Assembly: GCA_032718475.1 (NCBI GenBank)
Contig: JAUCBJ010008604.1
Coordinates: 1-64,000, forward strand
Origin: Nemertoderma westbladi
Taxonomy: Eukaryota; Animalia; Xenacoelomorpha
Direction of reading: 5' to 3'
Length of the DNA stretch: 64,000 bases
Shown: in pieces, positions 2 through 29,145 of the stretch
Position numbering within the stretch: the stretch's first letter is position 1
Layout of the letters: each line of letters begins with the position of its first letter
Notes under the pieces: generated by a model
Databases searched by the model: none
Told to the model about the DNA's origin: nothing
Seen by the model: only the letters and a program-made list of their open reading frames with translations
Position numbers and translations under genes: made by a program

Positions 2-3000
2 TGCCTAAAGTATCTACAAGTGTACACGGGAGGCCCAGCATACGATATCGTGAGGCAATACCAAGGAATAGAGGGCGGCTTCACGACAGCATGGCGGGCA
101 CTGGATAGGGAATACGGGCACCCGGCCAAGATCATCAGGCAGACGCTGAGAGGCATAACATCGGGTGGCCTACAGGATAATCCCGTTAGCATTAAGACGT
201 TTGCTAACAAAGTCGAGAAGGCACTGATCGTGCTGAAGACGCTAGACGCGCCATACGAGCTCAACGCGTCCAATAACATCACCACGATAGCGCAGGCACT
301 ACCGAGCTGGCTGCGCAACAAATGGAGGAAGGTCGCTTTCTCCACCCGAGACAAGAAGGGTGCGGAACCAGGTTTAGAAGAAATGTCAAACTTCTTAAAT
401 TACGAGGCTGAACTAATAACGGACCCAGTCTATAGTGAAGATAGCCTGGGAAAGGGACCAAAGGCAGATCACTACAGGCCCAAACCAGAGCACAATACAT
501 CGAACGCGTTACCGAGACTCAGGCAATCATTGCCATATGCAGCGACGCAGGGGACTGCAAGTCCACAGGCAAGCGAAGATAGGACAACATCAAGGGACGG
601 ACAGGGGAACAATAACAACATGAATAAACATAACCCCAGTACGTCCAGTAGGTCAAACCCAGTCAATAAGAATAGTAGGGACTTTGGTACAAACATAACT
701 GCGATACGCAATGCATTGTATAAAGAGGGCTACGACCCAAAAAGCAAGTGCCAGTTACACGCAAATGCGCTTCATAAAACCATGAACTGTAGGTACTGGC
801 AAGCGCTACCGAGGCAAGACCAGATAGATTACGCGTCGAGCAATAAAATCTGCTCGCGATGTGTGAAGAGTGGACACAAGGCCAGGGAATGCCAAGAGAA
901 GCCGGTCAAGTTTGGCCAAAGGAGAGGCCAGACGATGGCAACAAGCACAATAGGGGCGAAGAAGAGAGGAACAGTGCTACTTGGAGTAGTACCAGTGCGA
1001 GTGATCGGAGAAGGCAATCGATCAGTAACAACACTAATGCTGGTTGATAGTGGAGCTGCCTTCACATTAGTTGAGGAATGGGTAGCCGAAGAAATAGGGT
1101 TGAGAACGAGGCCAAGCAGGATGGCGGTGACAACCATCTCTAGCAAAGACGAGATCCTAGAGATGAGGACAGGACGGTGCGCAATTGCGGCAGTGGCACC
1201 AGGATGCGATTACGGGGCAACCATCGACCCCATCCAAGTAATAGAGTCAATTAACATCAATGCCAGGCGGCCAACCAACATCGAGGTCGAGCAATACAAA
1301 TTCCTGGACAACATTGACTTCTCAATCCCAAACGTGGACGTTAGGAAGGTATCCATCATAGTAGGCATGGACTGCCCAACGGCCCACGAGAGAATGCAGA
1401 CGGTCTTCGGCGAAGACAAGCAGAGCGACCCGGTGGCCATACTAACGCCATTCGGGTGGACGCTGAGTGGTCCAATTAAGAGCAAGATACCATTCAGGAT
1501 GTCGGAGACATCAGGATGCATGTTCGCGGGAACAATGCAGGAAATGGGTGACGAGGGAGCGGAGGAGCAGCTTAAAAGACTGCTCAGGCAGGACTTCGAG
1601 GGACTGAAAGAGACCGGAGTCGGGACCTCGGTAGAAGACAAGCAGGCTCTACAAAGTGTGGAGGAATCCATGACGTGTGATGAGGGGCGGTATACAATAG
1701 GAATGGTGTGGAAACTACCGAAGATACCGCTACCCGATAATAGAGGGATGGTACTCACGAGACTCCGCAAGCTGAAACAAACACTACAACGGAGCCCCGA
1801 GAAGAACGAGTACATTCACAAAACCATTAAGAAGTACGTCGAGAAAGGATGGGCCGTGGAGTTACCGGTCGACGAACCGAACACGGACAGGACATACTAC
1901 CTGCCACTCCACGTAGCTTTAGACCCAAAGAAAGGTAAACTTAGGATGGTAGTCGATGCATCGGCAAAGACCGACGGAAAGTGCTTAAACGATTACCTAC
2001 TAGAGGGCCCAAACATATACAATTCGGGCATAGAAGTACTACTTAGGTTTAGGAATGGGAAACACGCCTTCACGTGTGACATAGAAGGCATGTTCAACCA
2101 AGTCCGAGTAACAGAGGAAGATAGCGATAGTCAACGCTTCTTATGGTATAACGGCGAAGAAGAACCGCCTATAATACCGGCATATAAGATGGTAGTACAA
2201 AACATGGGAGCCAAGTCGTCCTCATTTACGACGACTATGGCAGTGAGAGACACGGTAAAGGGGAAGGAGGATAGATATAGCAGTAGGGCCGTCGACATGA
2301 TCAGACGCGGTTTCTACGTAGACGACGGCATGGAGTCTGGAAATACGGTTGAGGAGATACTGGAAACAGGGCGCGAGGTTCGCGACATCCTGAGAGGATC
2401 CGGCTTCAACCTGACCAAATTCCAATCCAGTTCAGAAGAATTTATCAGGGAAATAGAGGACAAGAAACCAGAATCGACCATGGACAACCCTACAACAGCC
2501 AAAGGACAGGACATGGCGATTAAGAGAACGGAATCCCAGCAGAAGGCGTTGGGAATCGTGTGGGATAGGAAAACAGACGAACTGAAGTATCAGCTGAGCC
2601 AGGAGGGCGCAGACACCCATACGAAGAGGGGTTACGTATCGTATATAGCAAGGATATACGATCCCTTAGGCCTAGCATCCCCATTACTAGTCACGGGGAA
2701 ACAGATACTCAAGAGAGTATATAAGTTGAAGGATGAGTGGGACGTAGAGGTACCAGAAGACATTAAGAAACAGTGGAGCAAATGGACAGGAGACTTGGAG
2801 AGGATGGGAACATACAACATGCCGCGAGTGTATTTCCCGGACGGGAACATGACGAATCTGGACCTACATATGTTCTCCGACGCGTCGTTAGAGGCATACG
2901 GAGCGGCACTCTATTTAGTACAACGAGAGGGGCCTCACAAGCCCAGACTAGCCTTTAGCAAAGCTAAGTCAACGCCGCCAGATTCAGCATCTGTTCCCAA

Positions 3001-4954
3001 GTTAGAATTGACAGCCGCGAGACTAGGAGTTAGAGCCACAGCCTACCTAGTGGATACAATTCCCAACATAGTGGAGACACACTACTGGACGGACTCCATG
3101 GTAGTGCTTGGTTGGCTACACAACGAAAAGACGAGGTACCCGATATTCGTCGCGAATAGAGTGGACGAAATAAGGGCGAGCACAGAATTGGAAAGGTGGC
3201 ACTACTGCCCAACAGACGAGAACCCAGCGGACTTGCTGTCGAGGGGCGTGGAACGCCACACTTTCTTAAAGAAAGAAGTATTGTGGCAACACGGGCCACA
3301 ATTTCTGAGCGATAGGGAGGCCTGGCCGCCGATGAGGAAGGTGGACCCGGGCTCGGAAGTAGTATCAGAAGGAGAAGAGGGAGATTCAGAGGGAGAAGAG
3401 ATATACTCCCAGATGGTGAGGGAGATCAGGGACGTGCAACCAGGAAGGGAACTGTGCGATAACCCGACGGATAAACTCCTCAGCTACAGTTCTAGTTGGT
3501 ATAAGACCAAGAAACTAGTGGCGTACTGGAGAGCCTTTGGGAATTTCCTTGCGGGAGTCGGCAAGGACAAGAAGACCAGGACAACCATAGATCTGGAAGG
3601 AGCGGCCAAGGCAGTCATCCGCTATGAACAACGCAAGAACTACGGCGACGAGGTGGAACGTGTCGGTAACCAACAACATCTCCGACGGGATAGCGAGTTG
3701 ATCACGCTGTCGCCACAACTCAACGAGGATGGGATCCTAGTAATGAATTCAAGGGTGGGATATAACAACAGTATAGTCGTGCCACCGAAACCCATCATCA
3801 TTCCCACAGGATCGCCTATAGTCCACCAGATCATATGGGACTCCCACAAATCGATACTGCATGGGGGCACCAACCGAACCCTCACAGAGATAAGGAGGAC
3901 CTATTGGGTCAAACAACTAAGGAAGAAGGTTAAAGCGGTAGTGGGGCAGTGCCAGACCTGCAGACGAGCGAAGAAGGAACGAGCCGTACAGGAGATGGCG
4001 CCACTACCGGCGAGTAGGGTAAGACAGCACGACCCGCCATTTACACATTGCGGTGTGGACATGTTCGGGCCGATAAAGATCAAGGTGATGCGACACACGG
4101 AGAAACGCTACGGTATTATCTTCGTATGCAACAATACGCGGGCGGTAGGGATAGAACTCGCCCAAGATGCAACCGCATCAGCCTTCATTAACGCCTTAGA
4201 AAGGTTTAGGGACCGCAAAGGTGGGACGATCGCAGTGATATATAGCGACAACGGCACCAACTTTGTGGGTGCAGAGAGTGAGATGGCAGAGGCCTTAGAC
4301 ATCTTGGAGGGAGAAGAAGTCAGGGCGGCCATGAGAAGACGACAAGTGAAGTGGGAGAGACGGACGCCGTATGCACCACATACACTAGGATGCGTCGAAA
4401 GACTGGTGGGCAGTTCGAAACGTCTAATGACGAAGCTGATGAACACCCACATGGTCACTGAAGACGTCTTACGGACGGTACTTGCAAAGTGCGAGGGGAT
4501 CATTAATAGCAGACCGCTATACCCGGAGAATGATGACCCTGAGTCACTAGACGTGTTGACGCCTAGCCATTTCCTGATGGAAAGGCCAGCGACCATAGAT
4601 ATGCGGGGTGTAGACCCAGATGATATACACTCCCGGCAAAGTTGGAAAGTAGCTAAAGCAATTAGCGCAGAGTATTGGAGGAGGTGGGTAGAAGAATACC
4701 TACCCACGCTCCATAAGCGAAGCAAGTGGAGGAAGCCAAACAGGGAGTTGAGAGAGGGAGATCTCGTAATCGTCACGGATGATACTATCATCAACAACCA
4801 ATGGCGGTTGGCGAGAGTTGTAGGCACCTACTCCGACGAGGACGGAAGAGTCCGATCGGTAGAAGTGCGGATAGGTGGAAAGATAGGTGCGAAAGACAGG
4901 AAAACCTACAGGAGAGCAGTAGGTAAATGCTGTCTCCTAGAAGGGGCACCTTAA
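2..4954 (+). CDS. BEL/Pao Gag-Pol polyprotein, 5'-truncated by window edge
   Basis: Frame is open from base 2. DUF1759-like gag, Cys-His motifs (CSRCVKSGHKAREC), aspartic protease LVDSGA, RT (CDIEGMFNQV, FYVDD), Pao RNase H (FSDASLEAYGA, YWTDS, NPADLLSRG), integrase (H..LHGG, CQTC, GVDMFGP, SDNGTNF, VERLV) and DUF5641-like end (YWRRWVEEYLPTL, DEDGRVRSVEV). No internal stops. Confidence 0.97.
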   Translation, partial: CLKYLQVYTGGPAYDIVRQYQGIEGGFTTAWRALDREYGHPAKIIRQTLRGITSGGLQDNPVSIKTFANKVEKALIVLKTLDAPYELNASNNITTIAQALPSWLRNKWRKVAFSTRDKKGAEPGLEEMSNFLNYEAELITDPVYSEDSLGKGPKADHYRPKPEHNTSNALPRLRQSLPYAATQGTASPQASEDRTTSRDGQGNNNNMNKHNPSTSSRSNPVNKNSRDFGTNITAIRNALYKEGYDPKSKCQLHANALHKTMNCRYWQALPRQDQIDYASSNKICSRCVKSGHKARECQEKPVKFGQRRGQTMATSTIGAKKRGTVLLGVVPVRVIGEGNRSVTTLMLVDSGAAFTLVEEWVAEEIGLRTRPSRMAVTTISSKDEILEMRTGRCAIAAVAPGCDYGATIDPIQVIESININARRPTNIEVEQYKFLDNIDFSIPNVDVRKVSIIVGMDCPTAHERMQTVFGEDKQSDPVAILTPFGWTLSGPIKSKIPFRMSETSGCMFAGTMQEMGDEGAEEQLKRLLRQDFEGLKETGVGTSVEDKQALQSVEESMTCDEGRYTIGMVWKLPKIPLPDNRGMVLTRLRKLKQTLQRSPEKNEYIHKTIKKYVEKGWAVELPVDEPNTDRTYYLPLHVALDPKKGKLRMVVDASAKTDGKCLNDYLLEGPNIYNSGIEVLLRFRNGKHAFTCDIEGMFNQVRVTEEDSDSQRFLWYNGEEEPPIIPAYKMVVQNMGAKSSSFTTTMAVRDTVKGKEDRYSSRAVDMIRRGFYVDDGMESGNTVEEILETGREVRDILRGSGFNLTKFQSSSEEFIREIEDKKPESTMDNPTTAKGQDMAIKRTESQQKALGIVWDRKTDELKYQLSQEGADTHTKRGYVSYIARIYDPLGLASPLLVTGKQILKRVYKLKDEWDVEVPEDIKKQWSKWTGDLERMGTYNMPRVYFPDGNMTNLDLHMFSDASLEAYGAALYLVQREGPHKPRLAFSKAKSTPPDSASVPKLELTAARLGVRATAYLVDTIPNIVETHYWTDSMVVLGWLHNEKTRYPIFVANRVDEIRASTELERWHYCPTDENPADLLSRGVERHTFLKKEVLWQHGPQFLSDREAWPPMRKVDPGSEVVSEGEEGDSEGEEIYSQMVREIRDVQPGRELCDNPTDKLLSYSSSWYKTKKLVAYWRAFGNFLAGVGKDKKTRTTIDLEGAAKAVIRYEQRKNYGDEVERVGNQQHLRRDSELITLSPQLNEDGILVMNSRVGYNNSIVVPPKPIIIPTGSPIVHQIIWDSHKSILHGGTNRTLTEIRRTYWVKQLRKKVKAVVGQCQTCRRAKKERAVQEMAPLPASRVRQHDPPFTHCGVDMFGPIKIKVMRHTEKRYGIIFVCNNTRAVGIELAQDATASAFINALERFRDRKGGTIAVIYSDNGTNFVGAESEMAEALDILEGEEVRAAMRRRQVKWERRTPYAPHTLGCVERLVGSSKRLMTKLMNTHMVTEDVLRTVLAKCEGIINSRPLYPENDDPESLDVLTPSHFLMERPATIDMRGVDPDDIHSRQSWKVAKAISAEYWRRWVEEYLPTLHKRSKWRKPNRELREGDLVIVTDDTIINNQWRLARVVGTYSDEDGRVRSVEVRIGGKIGAKDRKTYRRAVGKCCLLEGAP

Positions 4955-5069
4955 ATTAGAGTTAGTGTGAAGTTTAGTCGTCCAAGTTTTGGACTGAGGG
5001 GGGTGGGATTGAGGGCGAGACGCCCTTCCCACACAAATAAAATAAAATAAAATAAAAAATAAATAAAAG

Positions 5070-5895
5070 TTAGTTAGTTAGTAGGTACGTAGTACCTAGA
5101 GTTAGTTAGTTAGTAGGTACGTAGTACCTAGAGTTAGTTAGTTAGTAGGTACGTAGTACCTAGAGTTAGTTAGTTAGTAGGTACGTAATGCCTAGATAGA
5201 GTTAGAGGGTAGGTAGTACCGATAGTTAGAGTTAGTAGGTACGTAGTACCTAGTAAGTTAGTTAGTTAGTAGGTACGTAGTACCTAGTTAGAGTTAGAGG
5301 GTACGTAATGCCTAGATAGAGTTAGAGGGTAGGTAGTACCGGTAGTTAGAGTTAGTAGGTACGTAGTACCTAGTTAGAGTTAGAGTTAGTAGGTACGTAG
5401 TACCGATAGTTAGAGTTAGTAGGTACGTAGTACCTAGTTAGAGTTAGAGTTAGTGGGTACGTAGTACCTAGCTAGAGTTACAGGGTACGTAATGCCTAGA
5501 TAAGGTTAGAGGGTAGGTAGTACCGATAGTTAGAGTTAGTAGGTACGTAGTACCGATAGTTAGAGTTAGTAGGTACGTAGTACCTAGTTAGAGTTAGAGT
5601 TAGTGGGTACGTAGTACCTAGTTAGAGTTAGAGGGTACGTAATGCCTAGATAGAGTTAGAGGGTAGGTAGTACCGATAGTTAGAGTTAGTAGGTACGTAG
5701 TACCTAGTTAGAGTTAGAGTTAGTGGGTACGTAGTACCTAGTTAGAGTTAGAGGGTACGTAATGCCTAGATAGAGTTAGAGGGTAGGTAGTACCGATAGT
5801 TAGAGTTAGTAGGTACGTAGTACCTAGTTAGAGTTAGAGTTAGTAGGTACGTAGTACCTAGAGTTAGAGTTAGAGAGGGTACGTAGTACCACTAG
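5070..5895 (+). repeat. Tandem array of about 27 palindromic units (TAGGTAC-GTA-GTACCTA and variants) with GTTAG/GAGTTAG spacers, period about 30 bp
   Basis: Counted by eye. A 120-bp higher-order repeat is visible (5581-5700 matches 5701-5820). Confidence 0.95.
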
Positions 5896-6406
5896 TTAGA
5901 GAGAGAGAGTAAGAGGCAAAAGGGGGTAAAAATAGGATATAGATATTAGTTAGGAGTAAGTAGAGTTAGTAGCGAGAGGGGGGCATATGAGTGCAGCTGG
6001 ATAAATCGTGTGGCCACACGACGCATACTGCTGTACTGCATAGGCCCACTGATTAGGCCAGAATATGGATCAAAGAGAGAACAGAATAAATCCATAGGCA
6101 GTAGTAAGTAGTAGGACAGTAGAATCAAAGCAAAATAAATAAATAAATAGAATAGGGCTAAAAATCGGAAAATAGTGGTAACACAAGAAAAGTCGTTCTA
6201 GAACATAATAAAAGTAACGGACAGAAATCGTAAACTAGGCTGATTTACTAGCTCCGAAATTAATTAAATTAAATTAGGCTTGAAAGGCGCAGTTAAGTAG
6301 AAAAGTAGGCCATTATCGAACTGTAGGAAACATCTCAATACATCACTCATCTGTATTGCGCCTTGGTAAGGCACCACCCTGCAGGTGAGCGAGTGTAGTG
6401 TTCGGA

Positions 6407-8941
6407 ATGGCGAGTAAGCTGATCAGGAAGAGAAAGGCGGAGTCAGGAGGAAAAGAAATATTGGTGGATTTCACCGAAAGACACCCGGAGGAGAAGACGA
6501 GAGGATACTACGAGAGGTTGGAAAGGGGTCACGCGGCACGAGCGCTGCAGGATCACTTCCGGGAGGCGCACGAACAGCGGTTGGTCGGGACCTACGGGAC
6601 GCCGTCGCTGGATAACGCAATCTTCCAACACTTCCACTACGTAGTGAAAGGAGACGAGGCGAAGTTCGGGATTCCGAAGTATCCGAGGGAATCGCCGAGG
6701 AAGGACTGGAAAAGATTCATAGAGTCCGTCAACAGAGGAGGATATATGATCCTAGATGACGAGGGAACCGTGGAAGACGAAGCGGGATCGAGACGAGGAA
6801 CGGCAGGATCGGCCAGGACCATACTCTTGCATTTGGCAGCGCCAAATGGGGACATCTTCTTATTCGACTTAGGGACGTATGGGAAGAAGGACGGGCCGAA
6901 ATTAGACCGACTGCCGAAAGCGGTACAGGTCTTAGTAAGAGAGAAGTCGACGACGAAAGTGGGATCGGCGATTCGCGAGGACGCGGAGAGGATCATCGGT
7001 CCGGACGCCACCAACCTCCTGGATATGCAGAAAGTCTTTATGGCTATGACGGCACCGGATGGATTGGGGGTGGTCGAGAACTTAGGCCAATGCGGGGCGG
7101 TGGCGATGGGCCAATTATTGGGGCTCGTATGCCACAAACCAATGGATTGGGGGAAGTTTAGGGAAGAATACGGAGCAGAACTAGCGAACTCGCTGAAGTG
7201 GGGAGCGAGACCGGGAAAGCAGGAGGTATATCAGTTTCGCAGAGGAGCGATAAAGGTATATCAGAAGCGATATATCCTGCAGGAGGACTGGATGATGATA
7301 AGTTTACTTAACTTATTCATGACCGTAGTTATCGAAAGAGAACCAGGGGCATTTCTGTTATCGGGATCACCCCTAAGCTACAGGAGAGCCTTTAAGACGG
7401 CCTTTGACGGTCTGGTAGACCACCCGGGGCTGAAGGGCGAGTCGGTGTACTACAACAGCCGACATCTGGTAGATGGGGAGACGGATACACCGTATCAGAG
7501 ATGGGAGCAGCTAGAGATGGATAGACGGGAAGCAAAGCGACTGGAAGAAGTCGCTAGACGGGAGAGGATAGAAGCAGAGGAGAGGGAAGAGGAGGCCAGG
7601 ACACAGAGTTATGGCTTCGAGGAACAGGCGGGTCTAGACGAGCTTCATTGGACTTCGTCAGGGAGTTCGGGGGAGTCTCTAGGACGAGAATTGGGATGGA
7701 CGGTGGGATCGCCGAAACAGTCGACGTCGGGGTTGCAAACGATGCCCATACCAGCGGGCGCCGAGGGCGACCAACCGCCAAGGAAGTTAAGGGAGCTAGA
7801 GGGATGGAGAGCTACCGGCGAGAGCCAAGGCGGGAAGGGACATACTGGATCCATCGGGATACCGGGATTGGAGACGCTACCGGAAGAAGAGGACGACGAC
7901 GACGAATTCGGAGAGATACCGCCCATCGAAAGGATAGGCCACTCGGACACGGACTGGGTTGGCGGAAGGGTGGTGACGGCCAGTGGGGCAAGGGCCTTCT
8001 GGAACAGATCCGGCAAGCGGACCTGGGTGCACGAGGGGCCGGCGATGGATTTCGCGGGGAGCACCATCAGGTTGGGCGAGCAACCGGGGACGGCACCACG
8101 GATAGTATTCGGGGAGACGATGCCCGAGAGGGGCGGAGAGATAGACGTGAACAGGGAGAGCAACGTAGAGAAGTTCGCCTACCAGCGACTCCATAGACCG
8201 CGGAGATCGCTTGGGACGAAGGACGAGGTGGGACGCGAGACATTGGTACTCGGCTGCGACTACTGTGGGAGACAGACCCATCAGGAAAGCAGCTGCCTAT
8301 ACCGGTTCCAACGGGGAACCTTTTGTCTCTATTGTAGAGAACCAAGTCACAGGATGGGGGCGTGTCCACGGTTGCATAACCGATGTCCAAAGTGCCACTT
8401 TCGGGGACACTACGGACGCGAGTGCGACTGGATGAGCGACGAGGAGAAGTTCACGAGGTTCGAGGAGTGGGCCGACGTCGGGGCCATGACGCGCCAGCGC
8501 ATGAAGGCCCAAGAGTTCAAGTGGGGTTTCTTCCTCATAAACCAGGAGACCCACATGGAAATAATAAAGCGAAGGTTACCGTTTACCTATCAAGAGGTAG
8601 CTACGGCGGCATCGTTCGCCGGAGTTATGAACACGCAACGGTACCTGGACAGGTGGACACCAGAGAACCGGAGGGAGTTTAGGGATTTCTTGGCGGAACA
8701 CGTACCAAAGGCAATGAAGATGATCCTATGGGACGCCACACGAGGGAAACAACCAGGCCATTCTGAGGGGCCACCGGCGAAGCGGTATCGGGCTTTAATA
8801 ACACCAGCGCCCAAGGAGCCGACGACCGGGATCAGCAAGGAAGTGGCAGCGAAGGTCCGGAAGCAGAAAGCGGATGATGCCAGAGGAACAGTGATAACCA
8901 AGAAACGGGCCAGGGAGGAGGACGTGAGGAGGTACAGATGA
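6407..8941 (+). CDS. Retroelement ORF2: DEDDy (WRN/EXD/mut-7-like) 3'-5' exonuclease domain, coiled-coil and acidic linker, three CCHC zinc knuckles
   Basis: First ATG at 6407 (GGAATGG), in-frame TGA at 6386. ExoI-like YMILDDEG (D 6755, E 6761), LLHLAAPNGDIFLFDL, ExoII-like LPKAVQVLVREKSTTKVGSAIRED (D 6980), LLDMQ, ExoIII-like QKRYILQED (Y 7271). Knuckles CDYCGRQTHQESSC, CLYCREPSHRMGAC, CPKCHFRGHYGREC (8255-8425), all CX2CX4HX4C. The ORF is secure; the exonuclease call is by motif recognition only. Confidence 0.8.
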   Translation: MASKLIRKRKAESGGKEILVDFTERHPEEKTRGYYERLERGHAARALQDHFREAHEQRLVGTYGTPSLDNAIFQHFHYVVKGDEAKFGIPKYPRESPRKDWKRFIESVNRGGYMILDDEGTVEDEAGSRRGTAGSARTILLHLAAPNGDIFLFDLGTYGKKDGPKLDRLPKAVQVLVREKSTTKVGSAIREDAERIIGPDATNLLDMQKVFMAMTAPDGLGVVENLGQCGAVAMGQLLGLVCHKPMDWGKFREEYGAELANSLKWGARPGKQEVYQFRRGAIKVYQKRYILQEDWMMISLLNLFMTVVIEREPGAFLLSGSPLSYRRAFKTAFDGLVDHPGLKGESVYYNSRHLVDGETDTPYQRWEQLEMDRREAKRLEEVARRERIEAEEREEEARTQSYGFEEQAGLDELHWTSSGSSGESLGRELGWTVGSPKQSTSGLQTMPIPAGAEGDQPPRKLRELEGWRATGESQGGKGHTGSIGIPGLETLPEEEDDDDEFGEIPPIERIGHSDTDWVGGRVVTASGARAFWNRSGKRTWVHEGPAMDFAGSTIRLGEQPGTAPRIVFGETMPERGGEIDVNRESNVEKFAYQRLHRPRRSLGTKDEVGRETLVLGCDYCGRQTHQESSCLYRFQRGTFCLYCREPSHRMGACPRLHNRCPKCHFRGHYGRECDWMSDEEKFTRFEEWADVGAMTRQRMKAQEFKWGFFLINQETHMEIIKRRLPFTYQEVATAASFAGVMNTQRYLDRWTPENRREFRDFLAEHVPKAMKMILWDATRGKQPGHSEGPPAKRYRALITPAPKEPTTGISKEVAAKVRKQKADDARGTVITKKRAREEDVRRYR

Positions 8942-9617
8942 GTTCCCGGAGGCGAGGGAATGAGACTGAGACTGGGAGGTGGTGCGCCTGGAAGGCGCCG
9001 CATGTAACGTACGAACTATTAAATATAAATTTAATTAATGCAAATAACTATATAAGTGCAATTCGTATGTACGTACGTAGTGATTAGCAGTAAAATATAT
9101 ACGTTTGGAGTAAGTACTATAGTCATACAACCTTTCTCAACTAGCTACTGGGACTGGGGGACAATGACTATGGCACTATGGACGAGACAACTGACAATTT
9201 CACACTTCTTGAGTGCGGCGGCACGAGAGGGGGGGGAGGTTCGTCAGGAGAGATAAAAACAGTCAAAGTGGACTTGAGAATCGGAATAAGAGTGATAGAG
9301 TGAAGTGCGGAGAGAGTGCGAACGCAATCCTAGTGTGGGGGGGGGAGAATGAGAGGCTGAGTAAGGGACGAGGAGGTCCGGGGGTATGAGAGAGTTAGGG
9401 TGAGAGTGAAGGTGAGATAGGGCGAGAGTGTTGGGGAAACAAAAATCGCGTGAAGAGGTGAGCGCGATCGGCCCGACATGAGACGCCAGGCGTAAAGGGT
9501 AGCGTTATCATACCCAGAGGGAGCGGCCCGGAAAGCCGACTCCGAGAGAAAAGATTTCCACCCCACACCCGATGCTAGATCGGGATCCAGCGGGATTGTA
9601 GCGCACTTTTTTGGTTG

Positions 9618-9655
9618 ATGCTATCTTCTTACCGGGAAGATAGCATGGGGGGGAG
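9618..9655 (+). promoter_or_regulatory. Hairpin plus polypurine tract (plus-strand primer site)
   Basis: Perfect 11-bp inverted repeat ATGCTATCTTC/GAAGATAGCAT (9618-9646), then GGGGGGGAG (9647-9655), then TG. Confidence 0.8.
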
Positions 9656-10192
9656 TGTTAGCTTATTCAATCCCGCCAACACCCCATAAAGTTATTAGCC
9701 GATAAGCAATATTGGGAGCCGCGAGATTGGGTAATTAACCAACTCGCGCCATCCCAATAAGAATGGGAAGGAAGCACACAATAGAGGGTCAGGGGCCAAA
9801 CCCCTAACCCAAGGAGAACAGGTGGAGTTAACGGGAATACTCCACGGGGCGCCAACAAGGGTATTAACCAATCAGAGGGGGGAACGGCATCGATTGAGTA
9901 GCAGTAAGGCCACCGTGCAATATAACCAATAACCTATTAATCAGTGATTCAGTTATCTCAAGTGCAGCAGTGCTAGCGTAGGGTACAGCCAATTAGTTTA
10001 GTTAGGGGATCACGGGACTTTAGTTACCGTATCCCGCCTTGTACACATTCACAATATCTATATCTTATAACTTCCTATTATACACCGAACTTCAGAACTC
10101 AGTCACTTTATTTCATCCTTATACACGGCGGGGACGCGTGGACTAAATTACCACAACCGGATAAATCGGGATCCCTCTTGGATCCCGTCACA
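9656..10192 (+). repeat. 3' LTR (about 537 bp)
   Basis: Starts TGT right after the PPT and ends ACA; several CCAAT motifs and a TATA-like AATATAA near 9919. The 5' LTR is outside the window, so the right end is inferred. Confidence 0.7.
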
Positions 10193-10213: not shown

Positions 10214-10540
10214 TTAATCCACTGAGGTCGATTCCTTCGGCTTCAAATTCTGTCCAAGAATTTTAGTTGTTGGTACGAATTTTCCAACACCGCACCACAT
10301 TTTCCAGTATAAACCCCGTACTTTTCGAACATGATCAAGCTGGTCAGGGAAGGTTGACAGGTCCTTAATTGTCCCAAATATGTTAACCCCGTATGTCAGA
10401 GTGGGTAATAATATACTCTTCCACAGGCGCTTGGCTGTTTCTTTGGAGACAATATTGAGTTTTATTTTGAGATTTAGACGGATTATACACAAAACAGTAC
10501 ACAATATACTGTACAATACACCTTCAATGTTGATCCACAT
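10214..10540 (-). pseudogene. Non-LTR retrotransposon (LINE) RT C-terminal remnant
   Basis: Translation ...KETAKRLWKSILLPTLTYGVNIF... resembles the post-RT LxKxxxxPxLxYG motif; bounded by the LTR on one side and a MITE on the other. Confidence 0.6.
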
Positions 10541-10541
10541 A

Positions 10542-10907
10542 GGCCCCCCTCACACGGAGAAACTTGTTGCTCAAGAAAATAACAATTATTTCAAAACAAA
10601 TAGCTAACATGTCCAGTCATATATATATATAATATAAAATCACTGAATTTATCGAATATTAGCTATAGTATAAAAATTGGATGTAAAAAAGTTTTTAAAA
10701 ACCTTTTTAACATCCAATTTTTATACTATAGCTAATATTCGATAAATTCAGAGATTTGATATTATATATATATATGACTGGACATGTTAGCTATTTGTTT
10801 TGAAATAATTGTTATTTTCTTGAGCAACAAGTTTCTGTGTGTGAGGGGGTCCAGCAACAAGTTGCTGAAACAAGTTGCAGAAACAAGTTGCTCCGTGTGA
10901 GGGGGCC
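10542..10907. mobile_element. Palindromic MITE
   Basis: Termini GGCCCCC(C)TCACACGGAG ... CTCCGTGTGAGGGGGCC flanked by TA; 10542-10850 is a near-perfect fold-back centred near 10697. Confidence 0.8.
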
Positions 10908-18110: not shown

Positions 18111-20212
18111 GCAGGTCAGGATTTTTGAAAATAAAAAATTATAAAGCAAATTATAAAATTGTCAAAAACCATACAAATCCTAATCTATGTCGCTTTTTTG
18201 GATGTGAAGATGAGTAGGACATACATACAGTACAATATATCTAATGTTTAGTTCTGAGGCATAACAGCGAGAACATGCGAGCCACGTAGTAAAGGCGAGC
18301 CTTAACGCACTATGATAATTAGTAAATACTGGAAAATTTATTTCGAGTTATTATCATATTCGAGTTAGTGAAATATTGAAACGAGGGACCGAAGTGAGAT
18401 AAAAGTACATTATACACTATAAAATGTTGTTTTATTGTTAAATTTCTTGATTACTTAACGCTCGTCTATGGACGAGCCGCAAATAATCCATCTATCTACT
18501 ATATTTACGGCTTGTCCAAGGACAAGCGTTAAGTAATTCAGAAATTTAACAATAAAATATTATAATTATCCTTTGTATCATATTACAAGAAAGATTGTAA
18601 CATAGTCTTTATTTTCAACAGTTTTATTCTAAACTTCGTGGCCTTTATATTAATTTGATCTTATCTTTCGTTTATTATTTTGGTTCCATGAGAAATTTAT
18701 TATTCGCCTATATTATACAGAAAGTACTTTATTTGCTAACCATTAAGATTGGATCAGGGAGCCAAATGGAGTGTAAACTTGAGACATGTAAAATGTAATG
18801 AGAAATGTAAAAAGTTCTAAAATTATTTCTGTTGTTTCGTTAAAAATTAATTAATACAGTATAAAGGCCATAAAGTTTAAGATAAAGAAGCTGAAAATAA
18901 TGTTACAGTTTATTTTCTTGTATTCTATGATACATAAAGGATAATTACATTATTATAATTGCATTAAACATACTGTATAATATAGAACTTATGTCCATTA
19001 ACTTGGTACGAATTATCTGCATAGCTATTCGCACAGCAGAAGTTTCCAATAATGCGATTTCGTCGTTAAGGCTGTGACGGTGACCCTCCGCTCCTGTGTA
19101 TCAATACCGTTTTCATTTTCACCGCAATCCCACAGCGCCAGTTTAGTTTGTACTGTAGCTTAGTTTGGAGTTTTGATGCGTGGTATGTGTAGACATCTAT
19201 AGGTATCTGGATCGTTCGTCAATAGTCTCTGTGTCTCTCCTTTGTATATTTATTGCTAAATTCATCAATTATTCTAGAATCAACCTGCAATAAAAATAAA
19301 ATGTTAGTTAGTTATTTTCATAATTGCAGGGCAGTGATGGCAAAATACAGCACGAGTACATGCAACTTTTAAAAGTTCATATCTCAGCAATTCCTCAAAG
19401 AAGTTCAGAGTTTGTTACTGTACATATTGTAATTTGTGGAAGATAGGTGCCATACAGTATAGTTTGGTGTAAGTTGGATGCTGTTGTGTTGAAGTTGGGT
19501 GTAGTTGGTGAAAGTTGGGTGTAGTTGGGTTGGGTGAAAGTTGGGTGTAGTTGGGTGAAAGTTGGGTGTAGTTGGGTGTAGTTGGGTGTAGTTGGGTGTA
19601 GTTGGGTGTAGTTGGGTGTAGTTGGGTGAAAGTTGGGTGTAGTTGGGTGATTAGGCTGACCCTCTGCTGATCTGCCTATTGATGGATTAGATTGACCTGA
19701 CTGCCAAAGCTTGATTGGCAGATTGCATTTCTCAATATTATATTTTACAGTTTTATGCAGCATTGGTAGATCAGCTGATCAGTAGATACCGGTCTGCCGG
19801 TAAGCCTGCTACAACAGCACAATATATTAAAATAATCGATTTGATTTTTGTTTTAAATATTACTGTATTAGTCAGTCCAGCAGGCAGGCAGCAAGAGTCC
19901 AGCCAGCCAGCTGCCAGCAGTGAAGTTTTATTGTTGGCTTACTGGCTGACTGCTGGACTGGCTTAAAGTTAAGTCCAGAAACTCAAGTCTTTAGTCAGTG
20001 GGTTTCATGCATGGAACCCAAAAAACAAGCAATTTGGCTCTTTTTGTGATCAAAAACCTAAAATCCTAGTTTTAGGCTTTTTTCAAATTTTAGGTTTTTG
20101 ACAAAAATCGACAAAAACCTAGGTTTGGCAGTTTAGGCCCTACAAAACTACTTTGCCAGCCCTGTGCCTGGTGCCTGACTGTAACAGTAGCCTAGCGCTA
20201 GCCTCCTGCGAT

Positions 20213-22763
20213 ATGGATAAAATCGAAGCATATTCAGGAACCGATCGGTCCCTGGACGCCGGAGTTTGTCGATCCAAACTAGCTTCCGCAATCGCTGACG
20301 CCGTAGAGTTAAGCAACAAAGATGAGTTATTAAACTGTTACAACCAGGAGATAGGCGGCAGTGAAGCCGACAAGAAGATGACGTTGGACCAAGCCTTTCG
20401 GGACGCAATCAAAGGCAACATAGGCAACATCGACTTGTGCCTTCGTATCATTGATTTCTGCATCGAGTTAGTTAAAGACGGTATGACTTCAACCAGCGCG
20501 ATATTCGCTATAATAGCCGACGCTCTGGATCTGCTTCCGCTGGAGCATTGCGAGAAAGTTTTCACCTACATAGAGAGTAACGTAGCCGTATGGAAGCAGG
20601 ATCATCTCTACTCCGCCGGGAAGACCTACCTGCTGCGGATGTGCAACGACCTGTTGCGTCGACTTAGCGAGTCGCAGCAGACGGTTATCTGTGGCCGAAT
20701 TCAGATGTTTCTCGCTCGACTATTCCCGTTGAGCGAGAAGTCAGCCCTGAATCTAATGTCCCACTTTAACGTGGATAACCGGACAGTGTTCAGCAACAAA
20801 GAGGAAGTAATCCAGAACCACCTGCGGGAAGAGGGAATTGAGGAGGGGGAGCTCACGAAGATCGCGCCCCCCGTCGACTACGATCTATACCGAAAGTTCT
20901 GGACTCTCCAGGACTACTTCCGGTTGCCCACGCAGTGCTACGAGAAGGCGGCGTGGAGAAGGTTCACTCGCTACTCAGATGACGTCCTCACCGTTTTTGC
21001 TTCCTACAAGGTTGACGTTAGTCAGTCCTCCCGCAAACGGAAGCACAGCGTAACCCAGGATGACGTCACCAACCGCGAGATGACGTCATCCGATGAGGTT
21101 TGCTTCACTAAGTTTCTAACCAATGAGAAGCTCCTGGATCTACAGATGAGTGACCCCAACTTCCGGCGACATATTCTCCTACAAATGCTCTTCCTATTTC
21201 AGTACCTCGGCGGTAACGTGAAGTTCAAACTCGCCAATCAGGTGATTATATATGAATTAATATACATTAAATGTTAAACTCAACTTAATCTGATTATTTA
21301 ATTTTTCTAACATTTACAGATTTAGCATAAAGGGAAAATCTTCAGAAGCGCAGCACATATGGATGACTTCATATACGAGAGTCACTGCCTTCTAGTCAAA
21401 ACATTCTTTATCTTATTAAAAACAGTGAGCAGAAAGAAGGCGCTCTGCTCTAATATATGTTAAATATTAAATTAAATACAATTAAAAAATAATTATAAAT
21501 AATAATTATTGGCTTACAGTAGTATTATGTAATCATTGGGTATTGACGACGGTATTGTGATTGCATACAATGGGCCTGCAATACAATATCATGCAATGGT
21601 ATAATAATACATATATATAGCAAAACAGCATACAGTAAAATCCAGAGGCTTTATACTACTGGCGTGGCGAGTGACTTTTTTTAAACTTTTTTTAACTAAA
21701 AAATACAAAATAGTGAAGGGAATTATGTTTTTATTTAATTCACTCAAATAGTTAGCCCTAATTAACTTAAAATTAAGTAAAAGTTAATTTTTAGATAAAA
21801 TTATAAATAACCCCAACAATCCAAATATCCCCTCTACAGGTTCTCTCTGACGATCAGACTGGGTGGATAACCTCGACCGAGACGCGGGTTTACTCAATGC
21901 TGCGGGACACACCGCCGGATGGGCCCCAGTTCGCGGCCACGGTCGACCAACTGCTAAACCGTGAGACCAACTGGATCGGCTGGAAGAACGAGGGCTGCGC
22001 GTCGTACACGCGGCCACCGCGCGCGGAATCCCGCGTCAAACTGCGGATCCGGCGCGCCTCGATCGCCGACGACGAGGTTCCCACGCACCACTCGCACGAT
22101 CTCGGATCCGCCGAACTCACCCGACTGTGGAACATCGCCCCGGATAACATGCAGTCCTGTAAACTCCCGGAACGCCGATTGCAACCCACGCTGGAGGCCT
22201 TCTTCGAGTCCCCGGTGCAGCAACTAAACCCGAACTGCGGAATAGAAGACGAGTACAAGGCGACCCACCAACCCAACCACCAGTGGCGCGCGTTGCGGCT
22301 CCTGTCCCGCAAGGCGCCGTTCTTCTTCCATCCGACCACCCAAGCGTTCGCCAACATGAGTCAGTACATGGAGTACATGTGCCGGAAGCTGGCGAAAGAG
22401 TACCCGAACTTGGGGAAACAGTTGGAGGGAGGGGGGAGTGCGGTTGGGAGTAACGGTGGAGGGAGCAACGCTGTGAGCGACAGCGAGGGGAGCGAGAGTG
22501 AGTTCGAGGATACGGAAACAATGGTGACGGCTAAACAGTTGGAGAATCTCGCTGGGAAGCTGACGCCGCCAGAGTGGAAGAAACTCGCGATACAATTGGA
22601 CTTTAAGGATATGGACATACAGGAGTTGGCGGACAGCTACGAGGAACCCCTGACGCAGGCGAGGAAGATGCTCGCCTCCTGGTTCACTAATAACGGGACT
22701 AACGCCACGTTAAAGTCATTAACTACCGCGTTAACCGACGTCGGCTTGTCTAACTACCTATAG
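20213..22763 (+). CDS. THOC1: THO complex subunit 1 (Hpr1), two exons: 20213-21241 and 21840-22763
   Basis: LLRMCNDLLRRLS, CGRIQMFLARLFPLSEKSALN, LYRKFWTLQDYFR, NWIGWKNEGC, ELTRLWN, WRALRLL and a C-terminal death domain. Phase-0 intron CAG|GTGATT ... CTACAG|GTT joins the frames. Confidence 0.96.
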
Positions 22764-25317
22764 TGCCGTACGGACTTTATTTAGTATCGTTAACTTTCAT
22801 TTTGTTAAGCTAAGTGTTTATTTTTCGTTTTCTTACAATTTACGTACATTTAATTATACATGTACGCCAAACGAACTGCGTGTTTATTTCGATAGTCTGT
22901 CTGGCCGCTATCCAACTCAAGTTTTGGGTGACTATGTGATCTTACTGTCAACCTACTTCCAGAATATGCCCATAAGAGTGCTCTTACAGATGGAGTTGAG
23001 GACCGATGTAAATATCTATTAACTATCCTCACATAGTTGAAACTCAAAGAGCTGGTGCCGTGGAATAGCAAAATACATTGCGGAATGGTCTTGACATGGT
23101 AATAACGAACGGAAATTCCTTTGATTGGGTACATCCAGTCGAGTTATTTATTTTAAACTAGCAACCAATTAACAATAGAATAATATGTTAACAGTAAATT
23201 ATAAAAAAGGCCATCTTTCAAGCGCCCAGACTCACCCTCCTAGAAAATTCCAAGCGACCTTTACTCCAAGTTTGAGTCAGACCACGTAGAATGTAAATGT
23301 AGAATTTCGCACGCAGTGCCCAAGAGATGATTGACATTAAATAACTATAATTCTCGTGGTCTCCTGTCAGGACATTTATTATATTGTTCCTTACAGCCAA
23401 CTACAGTCGTACCTCGTAAAAATATATTTCCCTTATTACAAATAGTAGCAAAATAAATAAATTTGAGTCATTTTATCAAACTGTATTTTATTGCAAATAT
23501 ATTTTACCGAAAATTTTTACTTCTACCGATCTTTCTAAATGAAATACCGTAATTAAAAACATGGATGTGACTTTGTGTCTTAACTCTATAATATTGAAAC
23601 ACAACCTGATGGGTAATCCATAATATAAAATAAAAAAGGTTGTGTTTGACCTAATAATTAATGTAATATAATTATTCGTCTCCAAGTTCATTACTCTGGA
23701 GTCCCGAATAGACACGTCTATAAATTTTTGAAAAAAATTCCACCCACAATTCTCTTATTTTTTATTATGAGTAAATAAACGTTTGTTCTCATAATAATTG
23801 AGAGTTGAAAGTGAAAGTAAACAAAAACCGTGTACCGAGTATACCACCGGTAGCCGTAGGTACTACTGTACCTGTATAACTGTGTCAAAAATGTTCCTCC
23901 CACCCCGTTTATTCCACCCACCCCGTCCATCGGGACTCCTCCAGAGTACACACACATTGATTCTGGGTTACAACTAATAAGCAATCTCTTCTTGACCTTT
24001 AATAATAGCGCACACCGACGTTTAATAATTGGCTGTTAAGTGTGTTCGAGAGCAATGGATATTGAGCTCAACATGTTAAGATCTTACATATTCTTAATTA
24101 TCTCGAGAATTAATTAATTAATTAACGCGTAACTTTCCTATTCCAAGGCCGATACACAAATAAACCACCATACAAAGTCTCGTATCGATTCACCGTCAGT
24201 GTTTAGGCGGAGATAGGGCTACGACAAACATACATAATATACAACATTGACAATTGTATTATTGTATTATATGGCGGCCAAACAATTTATATATAAATAT
24301 TTTTATATTCCACTTGGCCCATGGCTGCCATAATTTTTTTTATTCTTTGCTCCTCGTGGCCCATGGCTGCTAGTTGCAGGTAAACAGGTCCATTGATGGA
24401 TGCATCTCTCAGTACAAATGGAGATAACTTCAAAATTATCGGCACCTTTTTGCTTTTTGCTTTCGGAATCGAAACTTGCTACAATCTTCATTATTTAGCT
24501 GTTTGAAGTTCCATCCATTGAGAAATTGTAGCCGTGATTATATTTGAAAAATTACTGTGATGTGAGCTGTGGGGCCATACTAAATGCTCGAAACCTTTAA
24601 TCATAAATCAAAGGTTCAAAAGTCAAACTAACGCCATATTCGTAAGATTATTTAAATATAGGGATGTCGATCTGTTTAAAAAAATCTGGAACATAAATAT
24701 ATTCTACTGGTTCTGGATCGGGATACTGTTTGGATTTGATCACTAGCATAAGATAATGTTCAAACATACAAATAGAAAGGTTTTATACATTTGGAAACAT
24801 GGCCAATTATGCTATTTTGTAAAACTATAATATAAATCATTGAAAATTGATTTCGTTGAATCTGAAATAAAAATAAAAGTTCCAAAATTTTATAAACGAA
24901 ACTACGGACTTAAGAAATACACGGCATTTATAATTTTTTATTGCTCGATAAATGATATTGATCAATATATGATAATGATATTGATAAATGATATGATTGA
25001 ATTATAATGATACCATGATAAACCGTTAAATGTTGAACGGTGTTTGTGGTACTGTGTAGTCTATAGCCCCTTCGCAATTTCATTCTAAAAAGATCTTGTC
25101 TATAGAGTTTGTCTAAATGACTTCTCTATTCGTTTATAGCACTTGTTTGTTTCGTTTCATCGGTATAGGGAATTTGTTTCTCTAAACGAATAAATTTGTG
25201 TAACGAATTGTTACACGAACGAAGACATGCTATGACAAGTTTTACATTGGCGGATTTATGTATTATTATAAAATAATAGTTAAACAAATAAATTCTCCCA
25301 AACAATATTATAACCTA

Positions 25318-26223
25318 TCACGGACAATCGTATATATGAATTGCTTTATCGTCTGAAACCGACACAAGTTTGGAACCAGTTCGATTAAACCGACACGACC
25401 ACACCTGGTCGGTGTGGTCCGCGAAGGTTGCCTCGCATCGTCTCTCCCCTACATGCCACACCCTGCAGGTCCGATCAGCGGAGGTGGACGCGAACCGAGT
25501 GTTATCGGGGTGGTAATCGACGCTGAGGACCCATGAGGCGTGTCCGGACAACGTCGAGACAAGAGATGCGGCCAGAACGTCGTAAACCTTTATATATCCG
25601 TCGTCTGAAGCTGTAATCAACAGCTGGGAAGCGGGAGAGAATGAAAGTCCTCGTATGGGCATGGCGTGGCCTTCCAACGTGTGTATGAGACGACCTGTCG
25701 CCAAGTCGAATATGTTTATAATACCGTCGATAGCACCGGAGGCCACGTATTTACCGTCCGGACTACAAGCCAACGACATTGTAAACTTCCCACGCGTATC
25801 GAGCGACGTTTCTTTCTCTCCTTTATCGATGTTAAACACGTTTATCTTTCCGGAATGACTTCCCGTTATGACGTTCTGTCCGTCCGGTGTGAATGTCACG
25901 GTCCAGGCGTCCACTGGGCCCGCGTCTATGGTCTTTAGGAGGGTCCCCTTACTGGTGTCCCACAGTCGTATCTGGGAGTCCAGTGAGTTGCTCGCGATTA
26001 CGGTGCCGTCCGGGTTGATGTCCACCGATACGACGCCCAGTTGGTGGCCCTCGAACACGTGCTTGAGGTCGAGTCGATCGTCCGTGTAGCGCCAAGCCTT
26101 GACCAGGTCGTCAACGCCGCCCGTTACTATGTAATCTATGTCGTCCTTCTCGCAATGTTTCCACGCGCAGCTCCAGATTCCATCGTCGTGCGAGTTGCTT
26201 TGCTTATACTGAACAGTATACAT
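25318..26223 (-). CDS. WDR61: WD40 protein WDR61/Ski8 (SKI and PAF1 complexes), intronless, 301 aa
   Basis: [64 protein letters not shown], end IHIYDCP. Probable start MYTVQYKQ at 26223. Confidence 0.96.
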
Positions 26224-27729
26224 TGTGTTGTGTTGGTCCACTCCACAGGTACCGGTAGTACTGTAGTAAATATGCAATAATAATCAACGTTGGTTTGGTA
26301 GCCTACTCCTGTACCGCTAGTCCTACAACTCTTGTACTCAAACTCTACAAAAACGAAGTAGGCCTACTACATCCGCTATTATTGAAACTGAAATGAGGCT
26401 TGCGAATGTAAACTTATCACTGGGGCTCTGCTCGGGTTCCTGCAGCTATTAATAGTTTGTTTGATTGTGGCTGGCTGGCTGGCTGCTGGGTTTGTGGCTA
26501 GAATGTTTGAACGCTAATAAGTCGGTCAATCATGGATGAAATGGAACCAAACTTGGTACACATCAGCACATGTAGTATCAAAAGTTTGGAAATTCTCCAC
26601 ACATACAGATTTATTTAGTTCCTCTGTCTGCCGCTAGGAGCGAATTGACAGTAGCTGTAATTATAGAACCAACCAGAAGATTCATCTGAAATTTGGTAGT
26701 GGTAACCTACGCGCATTGTTTAATTACAAATTCTACACACAGGCAGACTTTCACAGTTCCTCCTGTCTGCAGCTAGGGGGCGAATTGTCAGCTCCAGTTC
26801 ATCGTGCTTAGCATGATTTAATTTATTACGATATAGTGATATATACTTTTAGCTATACATAATTTTTGTTGATATTATTTACTCATGTATTTACTTGCAT
26901 TATACATATACGTACAGTACACCATTTCGATATTTCATTATACCCAAAAAGTATTACGCAAGCAATTTAAAAACAATGAAAATGGAAATCTGTGCCGACA
27001 TGTACGTACATTGTACTTGTGCATACGATAATGCAATATTTTTTGTAGTTTACTAATAATTAATGGCAATAATTAATCGTCCTTCTAAACATTATCATTT
27101 TTCCTAAATTTTAACAGGTAAATCACTAAAATATCAATTCAGTTTCCATGAAATATTTTACAAGAGTAGGCCTATCACTAAAATCTATTACTTAATACTA
27201 ATTAACGGAAAGGAGACGGTTACAGTGGCACGCTATTCTAACCAAAACAATAAACGAAATTCAATAAAACTGGTTACATATTTATTTCTGATGATGCAAG
27301 TTATCATACGGGTACCCTCTAGGCACCCTCTAGCGGGAGACTGGATAACTTCTGAGTCAACCACGGAAATTATATTTCAGAAATTTGAAAAGACTACAAA
27401 AATAAACAGTAAGAAATATTAAATAATTAATAACCGTCTGTGACAATATTATTATAAATTTCGTGATGAGTTTATAGTTCAAACCACTAAAACCAGGTAA
27501 TTATATAAAAAAAATACAATATAAGCTAAAAAGATCACTGTTTACAAACTTTTCAAATTGCACATTACTTTATAAATTCTTTATTGCACTATTTACCGGT
27601 AAGTGGCATGATAGTTTAATAAGTTTAATAAGGAGTATATATTTATTGAGATACTCCTCAGAATATGCCCAATAATAATAATTCAATAACATTGAGTTGA
27701 GTTGAGTCAATTCAATAACAAGGGTTATA

Positions 27730-28043
27730 TTGAAAAATATCGAGAGTAAAAATATCGGGAGTAAAAATATCGGGAGTAAAATTAGCTATAATTTTTTGTA
27801 TGAAACACTAGCTATCGACGAAAACATTAGCTAGTACCTGATTACTATAGAAACTAAAATAAACATTATTAAACATATATAAAGTATTTTACTCGCGATA
27901 TTTTTACTCGCGAACTTTTTACTCGCGATATTTTTACTCGCGAACTTTTTACTCGCGATATTTTTACTCGCGAACTTTTTACTCGCGATATTTTTACTCG
28001 CGAATTTTTTACTCCCGATATTTTTAAACTCGATATTTTTCAA
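27730..28043. mobile_element. Small inverted-repeat element made of 15-bp units (TTTTTACTCGCGATA)
   Basis: 3 units in one orientation (27733-27780) and about 10 in the other (27885-28042); ends TTGAAAAATATCGAG / CTCGATATTTTTCAA. Confidence 0.65.
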
Positions 28044-28148
28044 AGTCTCAATAAATTGTTCAGCAATACCTAGTCACGCATTTTCTACGGCGTAAATATA
28101 ATCAAGTTGGGAAAGATTGAGGTAGAAAGAAAATTCAATCTCGATGGT

Positions 28149-29105: not shown

Positions 29106-29145
29106 TCCAGCACTCAGAAAGTCAACAATGTACTCTGCAGTTCTG

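Follow-up and report, generated by a model that had tools for sequence, protein, structure and literature searches.

A tandem array of imperfect palindromes between gag-pol and a predicted DEDDy-type ORF in a high-copy BEL/Pao element of Nemertoderma westbladi

Introduction

What does a tandem array of short palindromes do inside a retrotransposon, between gag-pol and an additional open reading frame (ORF2)? The array in question lies within positions 1 to 64,000 (the window) of contig JAUCBJ010008604.1 of the xenacoelomorph Nemertoderma westbladi, where a preliminary description, made from the sequence alone, had presented it as a series of RNA hairpins and as the possible ligand of the ORF2 product. 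The array is real; the evidence for RNA hairpins is not upheld, and a module of RNA and nuclease is a minority reading.

Results

The host element

The array belongs to an element with a single gag-pol reading frame, in which Peptidase_A17/RNase H is present and the domains follow one another in Gypsy-like order, the arrangement that characterizes BEL/Pao (Table 1). Pfam recognizes Peptidase_A17 (E=5e-40), DUF5641, DUF1759 and the integrase in this frame, and the RT and rve matches are below the Pfam cut-off. The C-terminal part of gag-pol has 1377 relatives at E<=1e-20, the best 120 of which are 34–42% identical, and those with names come from animals. To our knowledge, BEL/Pao elements are confined to animals.

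The end of the 3' LTR and the terminal polypurine tract (PPT) are within the window, and the 5' end of the element is outside it. At position 10192, six contigs of run X5 exit into differing flanks and sequencing depth falls. The element family is high-copy; a contig identical to 8573–8708 has a depth of 3650, as compared with about 5 in unique flank of the same run, depth being no copy number. An alternative delimitation, a giant LTR starting near 5004 and including both the array and ORF2, was set aside: depth in run X5 is about 110–160 at the pol end and the G6 run and 430–830 in 9518–9973, as a rough guide only, and the PPT-like run before 9350 also opposes it.

Table 1. Coordinates of the element and of the features around the array
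Feature	Position	Strand	Remarks
BEL/Pao gag-pol ORF	2..4954	+	open toward the left edge of the window; DUF1759, knuckle, protease, RT, Peptidase_A17, integrase, DUF5641
Two predicted hairpins (4980–4994, 5003–5032) around a G6 run (4998–5003)	4971..5034	+	may be a relic or a central polypurine tract
(AAATA)n tract in which six AATAAA hexamers overlap	5035..5068	+	immediately 5' of the array; putative cluster of poly(A) signals
Array of 27 imperfect palindromes in tandem	5070..5895	+	four-unit, 120-bp higher-order repeat
Least purine-rich stretch before ORF2	6329..6384	+	has initiator-like words and weak resemblances to acceptors; putative start of an ORF2 message
ORF2, 844 aa	6407..8941	+	predicted DEDDy exonuclease domain, acidic linker, Cys/His knuckles, conserved helical C-terminal domain
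Terminal polypurine tract, G9 then AGAA, before TG	9337..9349	+	shape like that of BEL relatives; putative role
3' LTR	9350..10192	+	right end shown; left end placed from the PPT

To the right of the LTR end lies an open frame that resembles a LINE fragment (10214–10549, minus strand), and then a 155-bp inverted repeat at 10542–10852. Elsewhere in the window there are host genes with long open frames at 20123–33677 (THOC1, a WD40 protein, FANCL and an RRM protein), an 11.8-kb satellite at 34789–46544 (452 copies of a 26-bp unit, 99% identity) and, at 47117–49427, a composite tandem repeat of 40/58 bp in which several higher-order periods are present.

Anatomy of the array

The units tile the array without gaps, the first starting at 5082 and the last at 5876 (span 5082–5892 in the core scan). 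Each unit comprises a 17-nt dyad, with arms of 7 nt around a loop of 3 nt, and a C-poor spacer of 11–17 nt, which together give periods of 28–34 nt. The 13-nt core has 29 matches in the window at up to two mismatches, of which 27 lie in the array and two outside it; the mean expected by chance is 1.2. The LTR holds neither a core match at this threshold nor a TACGTA; a short stretch resembling the unit core, with two TACGTA, occurs at 9066–9081 in the AT-rich region 3' of the ORF2 stop.

The preliminary description had counted about 27 hairpins between pol and an exonuclease gene, each with a 7-bp stem; the units and their position stand, and the uniform stem does not. The perfect dyad (TAGGTAC-GTA-GTACCTA) is found in only 11 of the 27 units, three more units form all seven plus-strand pairs if G-U is allowed (14/27), and the remaining 13 have four to six contiguous pairs. 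The four inner pairs are possible on the plus strand in every unit, and neither the GTA loop nor the 5' GGTA varies in any of the 27. On the plus strand, the GTA loop is closed by a C-G pair in 17 units, and this closing pair is lost in ten.

The C-poor spacers and the richness in UAG are as first described: UAG occurs at 157 per kb in the array and at 19 per kb in pol, in a setting of 41% GC. Words of this kind are known from the RNA motifs of Musashi and hnRNP proteins, and the array has 55 motifs of the Musashi type. The two variants named at the outset, TGGGTAC and ATGCCTA, are likewise present. They do recur, yet by duplication of a block rather than by repeated change. Tandem Repeats Finder reports a period of 120 bp, and the order of the unit classes (PPPMGPPMGPxPWMGxPWMGPWMGPPx) shows a block of four units, about 120 bp long, that has been copied several times; since this block was duplicated, the recurrent variants are descendants of few events and not independent changes. 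The ATGCCTA variant places five ATGs in the array (5188, 5308, 5492, 5642 and 5762), each soon followed by a stop, which is probably incidental.

Contigs of runs X1 and X6 carry further units at the right end of the array, so that the array is a property of the family and its right end varies between copies. Searches of metagenome contigs and of prokaryote genomes with the exact array patterns returned no match. An origin from telomere repeats is ruled out, there being no TTAGG in the array.

Substitution pattern in the dyads

Substitutions were counted against the commonest unit within a single copy of the array, and the events are few. Nine distinct substitutions are seen, eight of them to a purine; three, each of them A>G, leave a G-U pair on the plus strand, six abolish the pair, and none of the nine in this copy is compensatory. 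The preliminary description had taken wobble-compatible variants as evidence for RNA structure. This argument fails, because under the family's own A>G-rich spectrum a stem change keeps its pair by chance in about 41% of cases (17% under a uniform model), so three of nine is no excess (P=0.79). The check it had proposed, namely whether substitutions are random with respect to pairing, thus came out against hairpins, on very few events. In the absence of both compensatory change and wobble excess, pairing is not visibly what is kept.

Two weak signals of constraint remain. When two changes private to the last unit are left out, the other seven are milder than random ones (mean 1.1 vs 2.6 kcal/mol), with P=0.064 under the family spectrum and 0.018 under the uniform model. 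In addition, only one of six private point changes falls within the dyads, which make up 56% of the letters (P=0.065; a hand count from the script's list). The inner four pairs and the loop (11 positions) have a single distinct change, and all six outer and closing positions have changed, in a partition chosen post hoc; the sole inner change is A13G, found in five units, which leaves a U-G pair on the plus strand. Shuffling of the units yields a perfect 7-bp dyad in 0.6% of cases, and among 13 further tandem repeats sampled from the window, two contain dyads of at least 6 bp. In sum, constraint on the dyad is weak and non-significant, with no sign that pairing is what is kept.

Predicted folding of the array

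In an equilibrium model, the array does not fold into the 27 hairpins first proposed; a nested ladder between units is predicted instead, in which the arms of one unit pair with those of other units, so that short helices around GUA/GUA 3x3 loops make up rods. The probability of the local hairpin is at most 0.10 in 26 of the 27 units, long-range pairs account for 221 of the 243 expected, and the minimum free energy is -164.5 kcal/mol with local pairs only and -252.9 kcal/mol globally; these figures are those of an equilibrium model, and co-transcriptional folding could trap local hairpins. The minus strand reaches only -168.8, a strand difference that follows from the G/U-rich composition, and a DNA model shows no difference between strands (-4.1 vs -3.9). 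A dimer of two units is favored over two hairpins (-21.3 vs -14.6), and the 120-nt block gains only 4.6 kcal/mol by dimerizing. Measured against tandem controls with shuffled units, the folding energy is not exceptional (P=0.09). Dinucleotide-shuffle z-scores of -5.7 and -4.5 were dropped as evidence, because such shuffling destroys the tandem periodicity. Rfam has no match for the array, the best (E=1.5) being far below the gathering score.

The flanks of the array

On the pol side, the G6 run is located 43 nt 3' of the pol stop between two hairpins with a predicted fold of -26.0 kcal/mol (DNA z=-5.25 for 5000–5040). Among copies, the 16 nt directly 3' of the stop (4955–4970) have 17 substitution rows, and 4971–5026 has no substitution at 1% or more and three indel rows only, a comparison that is biased by the much greater summed depth of the latter; the double hairpin is apparently conserved across copies. 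A PPT-like G-run followed by TG within 130 nt of the pol stop occurs in 22 of the 76 BEL relatives with at least 30 nt after that stop (shuffled mean 5.1, maximum 11). As the G6 run at +43 sits where simple BEL elements end, its position suggests that the array and ORF2 were acquired together, as a cassette 3' of an older PPT. Between the G6 run and the array, the succession of six AATAAA hexamers and G/U-rich sequence resembles an internal poly(A) site, through which a full-length RNA would have to read.

On the ORF2 side, about 510 nt separate the end of the array from the ATG. The pyrimidine fraction is 0.60 in 6340–6379, and no strong splice acceptor, with at least 12 pyrimidines in 20 nt, is found before ORF2. 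Just 5' of the ATG, at 6365–6392, there are two splice-donor-like words, G|GTAAGG and CAG|GTGAGC.

ORF2

As noted in the preliminary description, the array is flanked by BEL/Pao gag-pol and by a DEDDy-like ORF with knuckles, and the exonuclease and knuckle character of the latter is corroborated by profile and structure comparison. ORF2 is a conserved, predicted DEDDy-type protein (Nibbler/EXD2/Egalitarian-like) with CCHC-type knuckles. Judged by its sequence and predicted structure, it combines an RNase H-like fold with ExoI D-x-E (D117/E119), ExoII D (D192) and ExoIII Y-x3-D (Y289/E293, where E replaces the last D), and an alignment with the relatives that share the N-terminal domain places these five residues on the DEDDy motifs.

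A full HMMER scan yields 75 relatives at E<=0.001, nearly all via the Cys/His cluster; in a small local search, the N-terminal domain is also matched (E<0.001) in 11 of 40 relatives of at least 440 aa. The ten relatives that were looked up are proteins without names. PF01612 is matched just under its cut-off in two of 33 scanned relatives, and the same family was the Atlas lead for ORF2 (0.91, on 50% of members). The matches of a 33-sequence profile include EXD2 (E=5e-10), T. brucei RNase D, Lin28, Egalitarian and WRN, as well as nucleocapsid knuckles, the match to Egalitarian covering the exonuclease-like region only. The structure model (mean pLDDT 66) matches Nibbler (E=8e-5), RNase D and Egalitarian; a fold from the single sequence is unusable (pLDDT 36). 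Queries with the single protein found less: Pfam returned no family for the whole ORF2 and only sub-threshold knuckle matches for its parts, word-index searches and a PDB search gave no match, and a scan of viral contigs found none.

Among the listed differences between copies (40 of 618), 33 lie in ORF2, and 27 of these fall on third codon positions. Purifying selection acts on ORF2, which must therefore be expressed somehow.

Egalitarian, Nibbler, EXD2 and T. brucei RNase D have the DEDDy fold in common with ORF2 (for Nibbler, TM 0.63–0.64 by target length), and RNase D entries in the PDB have CCHC fingers too. Unlike ORF2, these proteins are cellular; identity is 9–17%, and the other RNA-binding domains of Egalitarian are unmatched. 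Closer in setting are the ORF3s of the bdelloid elements Juno and Vesta and of Terminons, which are accessory DEDDy-type ORFs after pol that keep the acidic motif residues and in some cases have Cys/His motifs, as ORF2 does (PMC5408684; PMC6431247). In contrast to these, ORF2 has 844 aa, a knuckle cluster and a conserved C-terminal domain, and belongs to another lineage of LTR elements. A tandem array is present here, and none is mentioned for the bdelloid elements in the available text of their description (PMC5408684).

BEL relatives in other data

Relatives of the element were collected from metagenomes, where 80 of 483 were kept, and from a viral collection (one locus), giving 81 loci, 78 of which reach the pol stop. 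None of the 81 has ORF2 (best E=0.12) or a match to the array below E=0.04, an absence that is weak in that all the relatives are distant and only 24 of the 78 extend at least 1000 nt beyond the pol stop. Eleven tandem arrays of at least four copies are found in ten of the 81 loci. One of them, in locus L041, is an unrelated 18-nt array of 6.7 copies that starts directly after the pol stop and runs to the contig end (6153–6272); another, at the contig end of L017, has a 6-bp dyad. No post-pol array of a relative approaches the 826 nt of the array described here. In the literature covered, with most subscription papers and Repbase outside its scope, we found no report of a palindromic array or of a DEDDy ORF in BEL/Pao.

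Discussion

The nearest match to the array is the set of motifs of plant Sireviruses. These motifs are palindromes with a short central spacer, present in up to 18 copies between pol and an extra ORF; 77 of the 79 copies in the linker are upstream of such an ORF, and where the linker is without one, the motifs are reported to be absent too (PMC2829016). One of them, Inga, has the same GGTA...TACC core, and both the Sirevirus motifs and the units described here can form hairpins. A role in cis has been proposed, unproven, for the Sirevirus motifs as regulators, including an internal promoter for the ENV-like ORF (PMC2829016), and in maize LTRs they are siRNA hotspots (PMC4728375). The array here differs in being a strict tandem array with a higher-order repeat, in belonging to an animal BEL/Pao rather than a plant Ty1/copia element, and in preceding a predicted DEDDy exonuclease instead of an ENV-like ORF. 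Moreover, Sirevirus motifs also occur in the LTR, upstream of the TATA box, whereas the array has no LTR copies, no CGG-CCG and no CpG-island setting. It is thus without the features that mark membership of the Sirevirus motifs, but may work alike.

By this analogy we tentatively favor, with only a small margin over its rivals, a dyad array that grew by slippage and likely acts in cis on the expression of ORF2. A single dyad-bearing unit was likely amplified by slippage or strand transfer, and the block of four units would then have undergone a further round of amplification. A dimeric host factor would recognize the repeated dyads as double-stranded DNA sequence, as has been proposed, unproven, for Sireviruses. 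In combination with the AATAAA cluster, the dyads would divide gag-pol from an ORF2 unit with a putative internal start near 6330–6400. The position and anatomy shared with the Sirevirus motifs (PMC2829016) argue for this reading, as do the missing compensatory changes and wobble excess, the weak constraint on the dyad and the rarity of a 7-bp dyad in shuffled units, the purifying selection on ORF2, the lack of a strong acceptor before ORF2 combined with six AATAAA before the array, and the presence of array units with a different right end in other copies, with neither ORF2 nor array in the 81 BEL loci. Against it stand the differences from Sireviruses in LTR copies, CGG-CCG and GC content, the distance between the array and the ORF2 ATG, and the non-significance of the constraint signals, together with the palindromes in other tandem repeats of the window. 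The A13G change, which keeps a plus-strand U-G pair, suits a reading as RNA, or chance. The absence from relatives is weak, and bdelloid ORF3s are reportedly expressed from spliced messages (PMC5408684).

Somewhat less probable is that the array is a neutral by-product, a hypervariable repeat of the kind found between pol and the 3' LTR in Ogre and Retand, in which the palindrome favors both slippage and strand transfer, and the abundance of UAG is due to a purine-rich plus strand. Arrays in this position are family-specific, occur in about half of the Retand clusters without known function (PMC11963269), and have been proposed to arise by abnormal strand transfer (PMC7004042). The Retand and Ogre elements are plant Gypsy elements of the Tat lineage, the extra ORFs of Retand are antisense TRP28, and the available descriptions of their units make no reference to palindromy (PMC11963269; PMC7004042). 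In favor of neutrality are the higher-order duplication history, the preponderance of substitutions to purine and of those that break a pair, the unexceptional energy against tandem controls, the unrelated array after the pol stop of L041, and the other non-coding parts of the element, which are likewise purine-rich. Neutrality fits less well with the two weak constraint signals, with the near-invariance of the inner dyad and loop next to fully changed outer positions (again, a post hoc partition), and with the carriage of 826 nt in a high-copy family, a length that no post-pol array among the relatives comes near.

It is rather unlikely that the array is a multivalent signal on the full-length RNA, or a ligand of ORF2, in which 7-bp helices form between units or between RNAs around GUA/GUA 3x3 loops. 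Such a signal could serve dimerization, packaging, export or transport, and would possibly be bound by the ORF2 knuckles or the Egalitarian-like domain. The far more stable plus-strand ladder, the preference for a unit dimer and the four inner pairs available in all units are in line with this, as are the profile matches of ORF2 to EXD2, T. brucei RNase D, Egalitarian, Lin28 and nucleocapsid knuckles. Precedents exist in Egalitarian, which recognizes two bent stem-loops, the I-factor signal among them (PMC13186709), and in Cer1, which encodes its own RNA export protein (PMC10309623). However, compensatory change and wobble excess are missing, the strand difference is one of composition, and the 120-nt block gains little by dimerizing. 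Furthermore, Egalitarian owes its specificity mostly to its ED1 and ED2 domains (PMC13186709), beyond the exonuclease-like region that the ORF2 profile matched, and ORF2 retains acidic residues of the catalytic type. A bolder form, in which array and ORF2 make up a self-contained module, the RNA ladder marking genomic RNA and ORF2 binding it multivalently to dimerize, export, transport or shield it, strikes us as improbable. If true, the module would be a Rev/RRE-like system derived from a nuclease fold of the piRNA-pathway type, in a widespread and unnamed family of animal retrotransposon proteins.

A single-stranded DNA element in reverse transcription, in which G6 acts as a central PPT and the displaced plus-strand flap forms C(GTA)G mini-hairpins as a protection from 3' exonucleases, is very unlikely: G6 lies where 22 of 76 relatives have a PPT-like run and is apparently conserved, the very stable DNA mini-hairpin takes GNA triloops only and its RNA counterparts (a GAAA loop is the one shown) are much weaker (PMC13037366), and most units close the loop with C-G, yet ten have lost this pair, GTA is the weakest GNA loop (PMC13037366), the DNA model has no strand difference, and the flap would have to exceed 800 nt.

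Whichever of these readings holds, including the action in cis that we tentatively prefer, ORF2 is arguably more surprising than the array: an unannotated family of predicted DEDDy-plus-knuckle proteins, with 75 relatives and under purifying selection, merits a study of its own. Plant retrotransposons commonly have arrays between pol and an additional ORF; the origin and function of such arrays have been described as unknown (PMC11963269). The element of N. westbladi offers a clean, young, high-copy animal case in BEL/Pao, with an unusually simple 17-nt dyad, in which counts across copies would separate the promoter, RNA-signal and neutral models.
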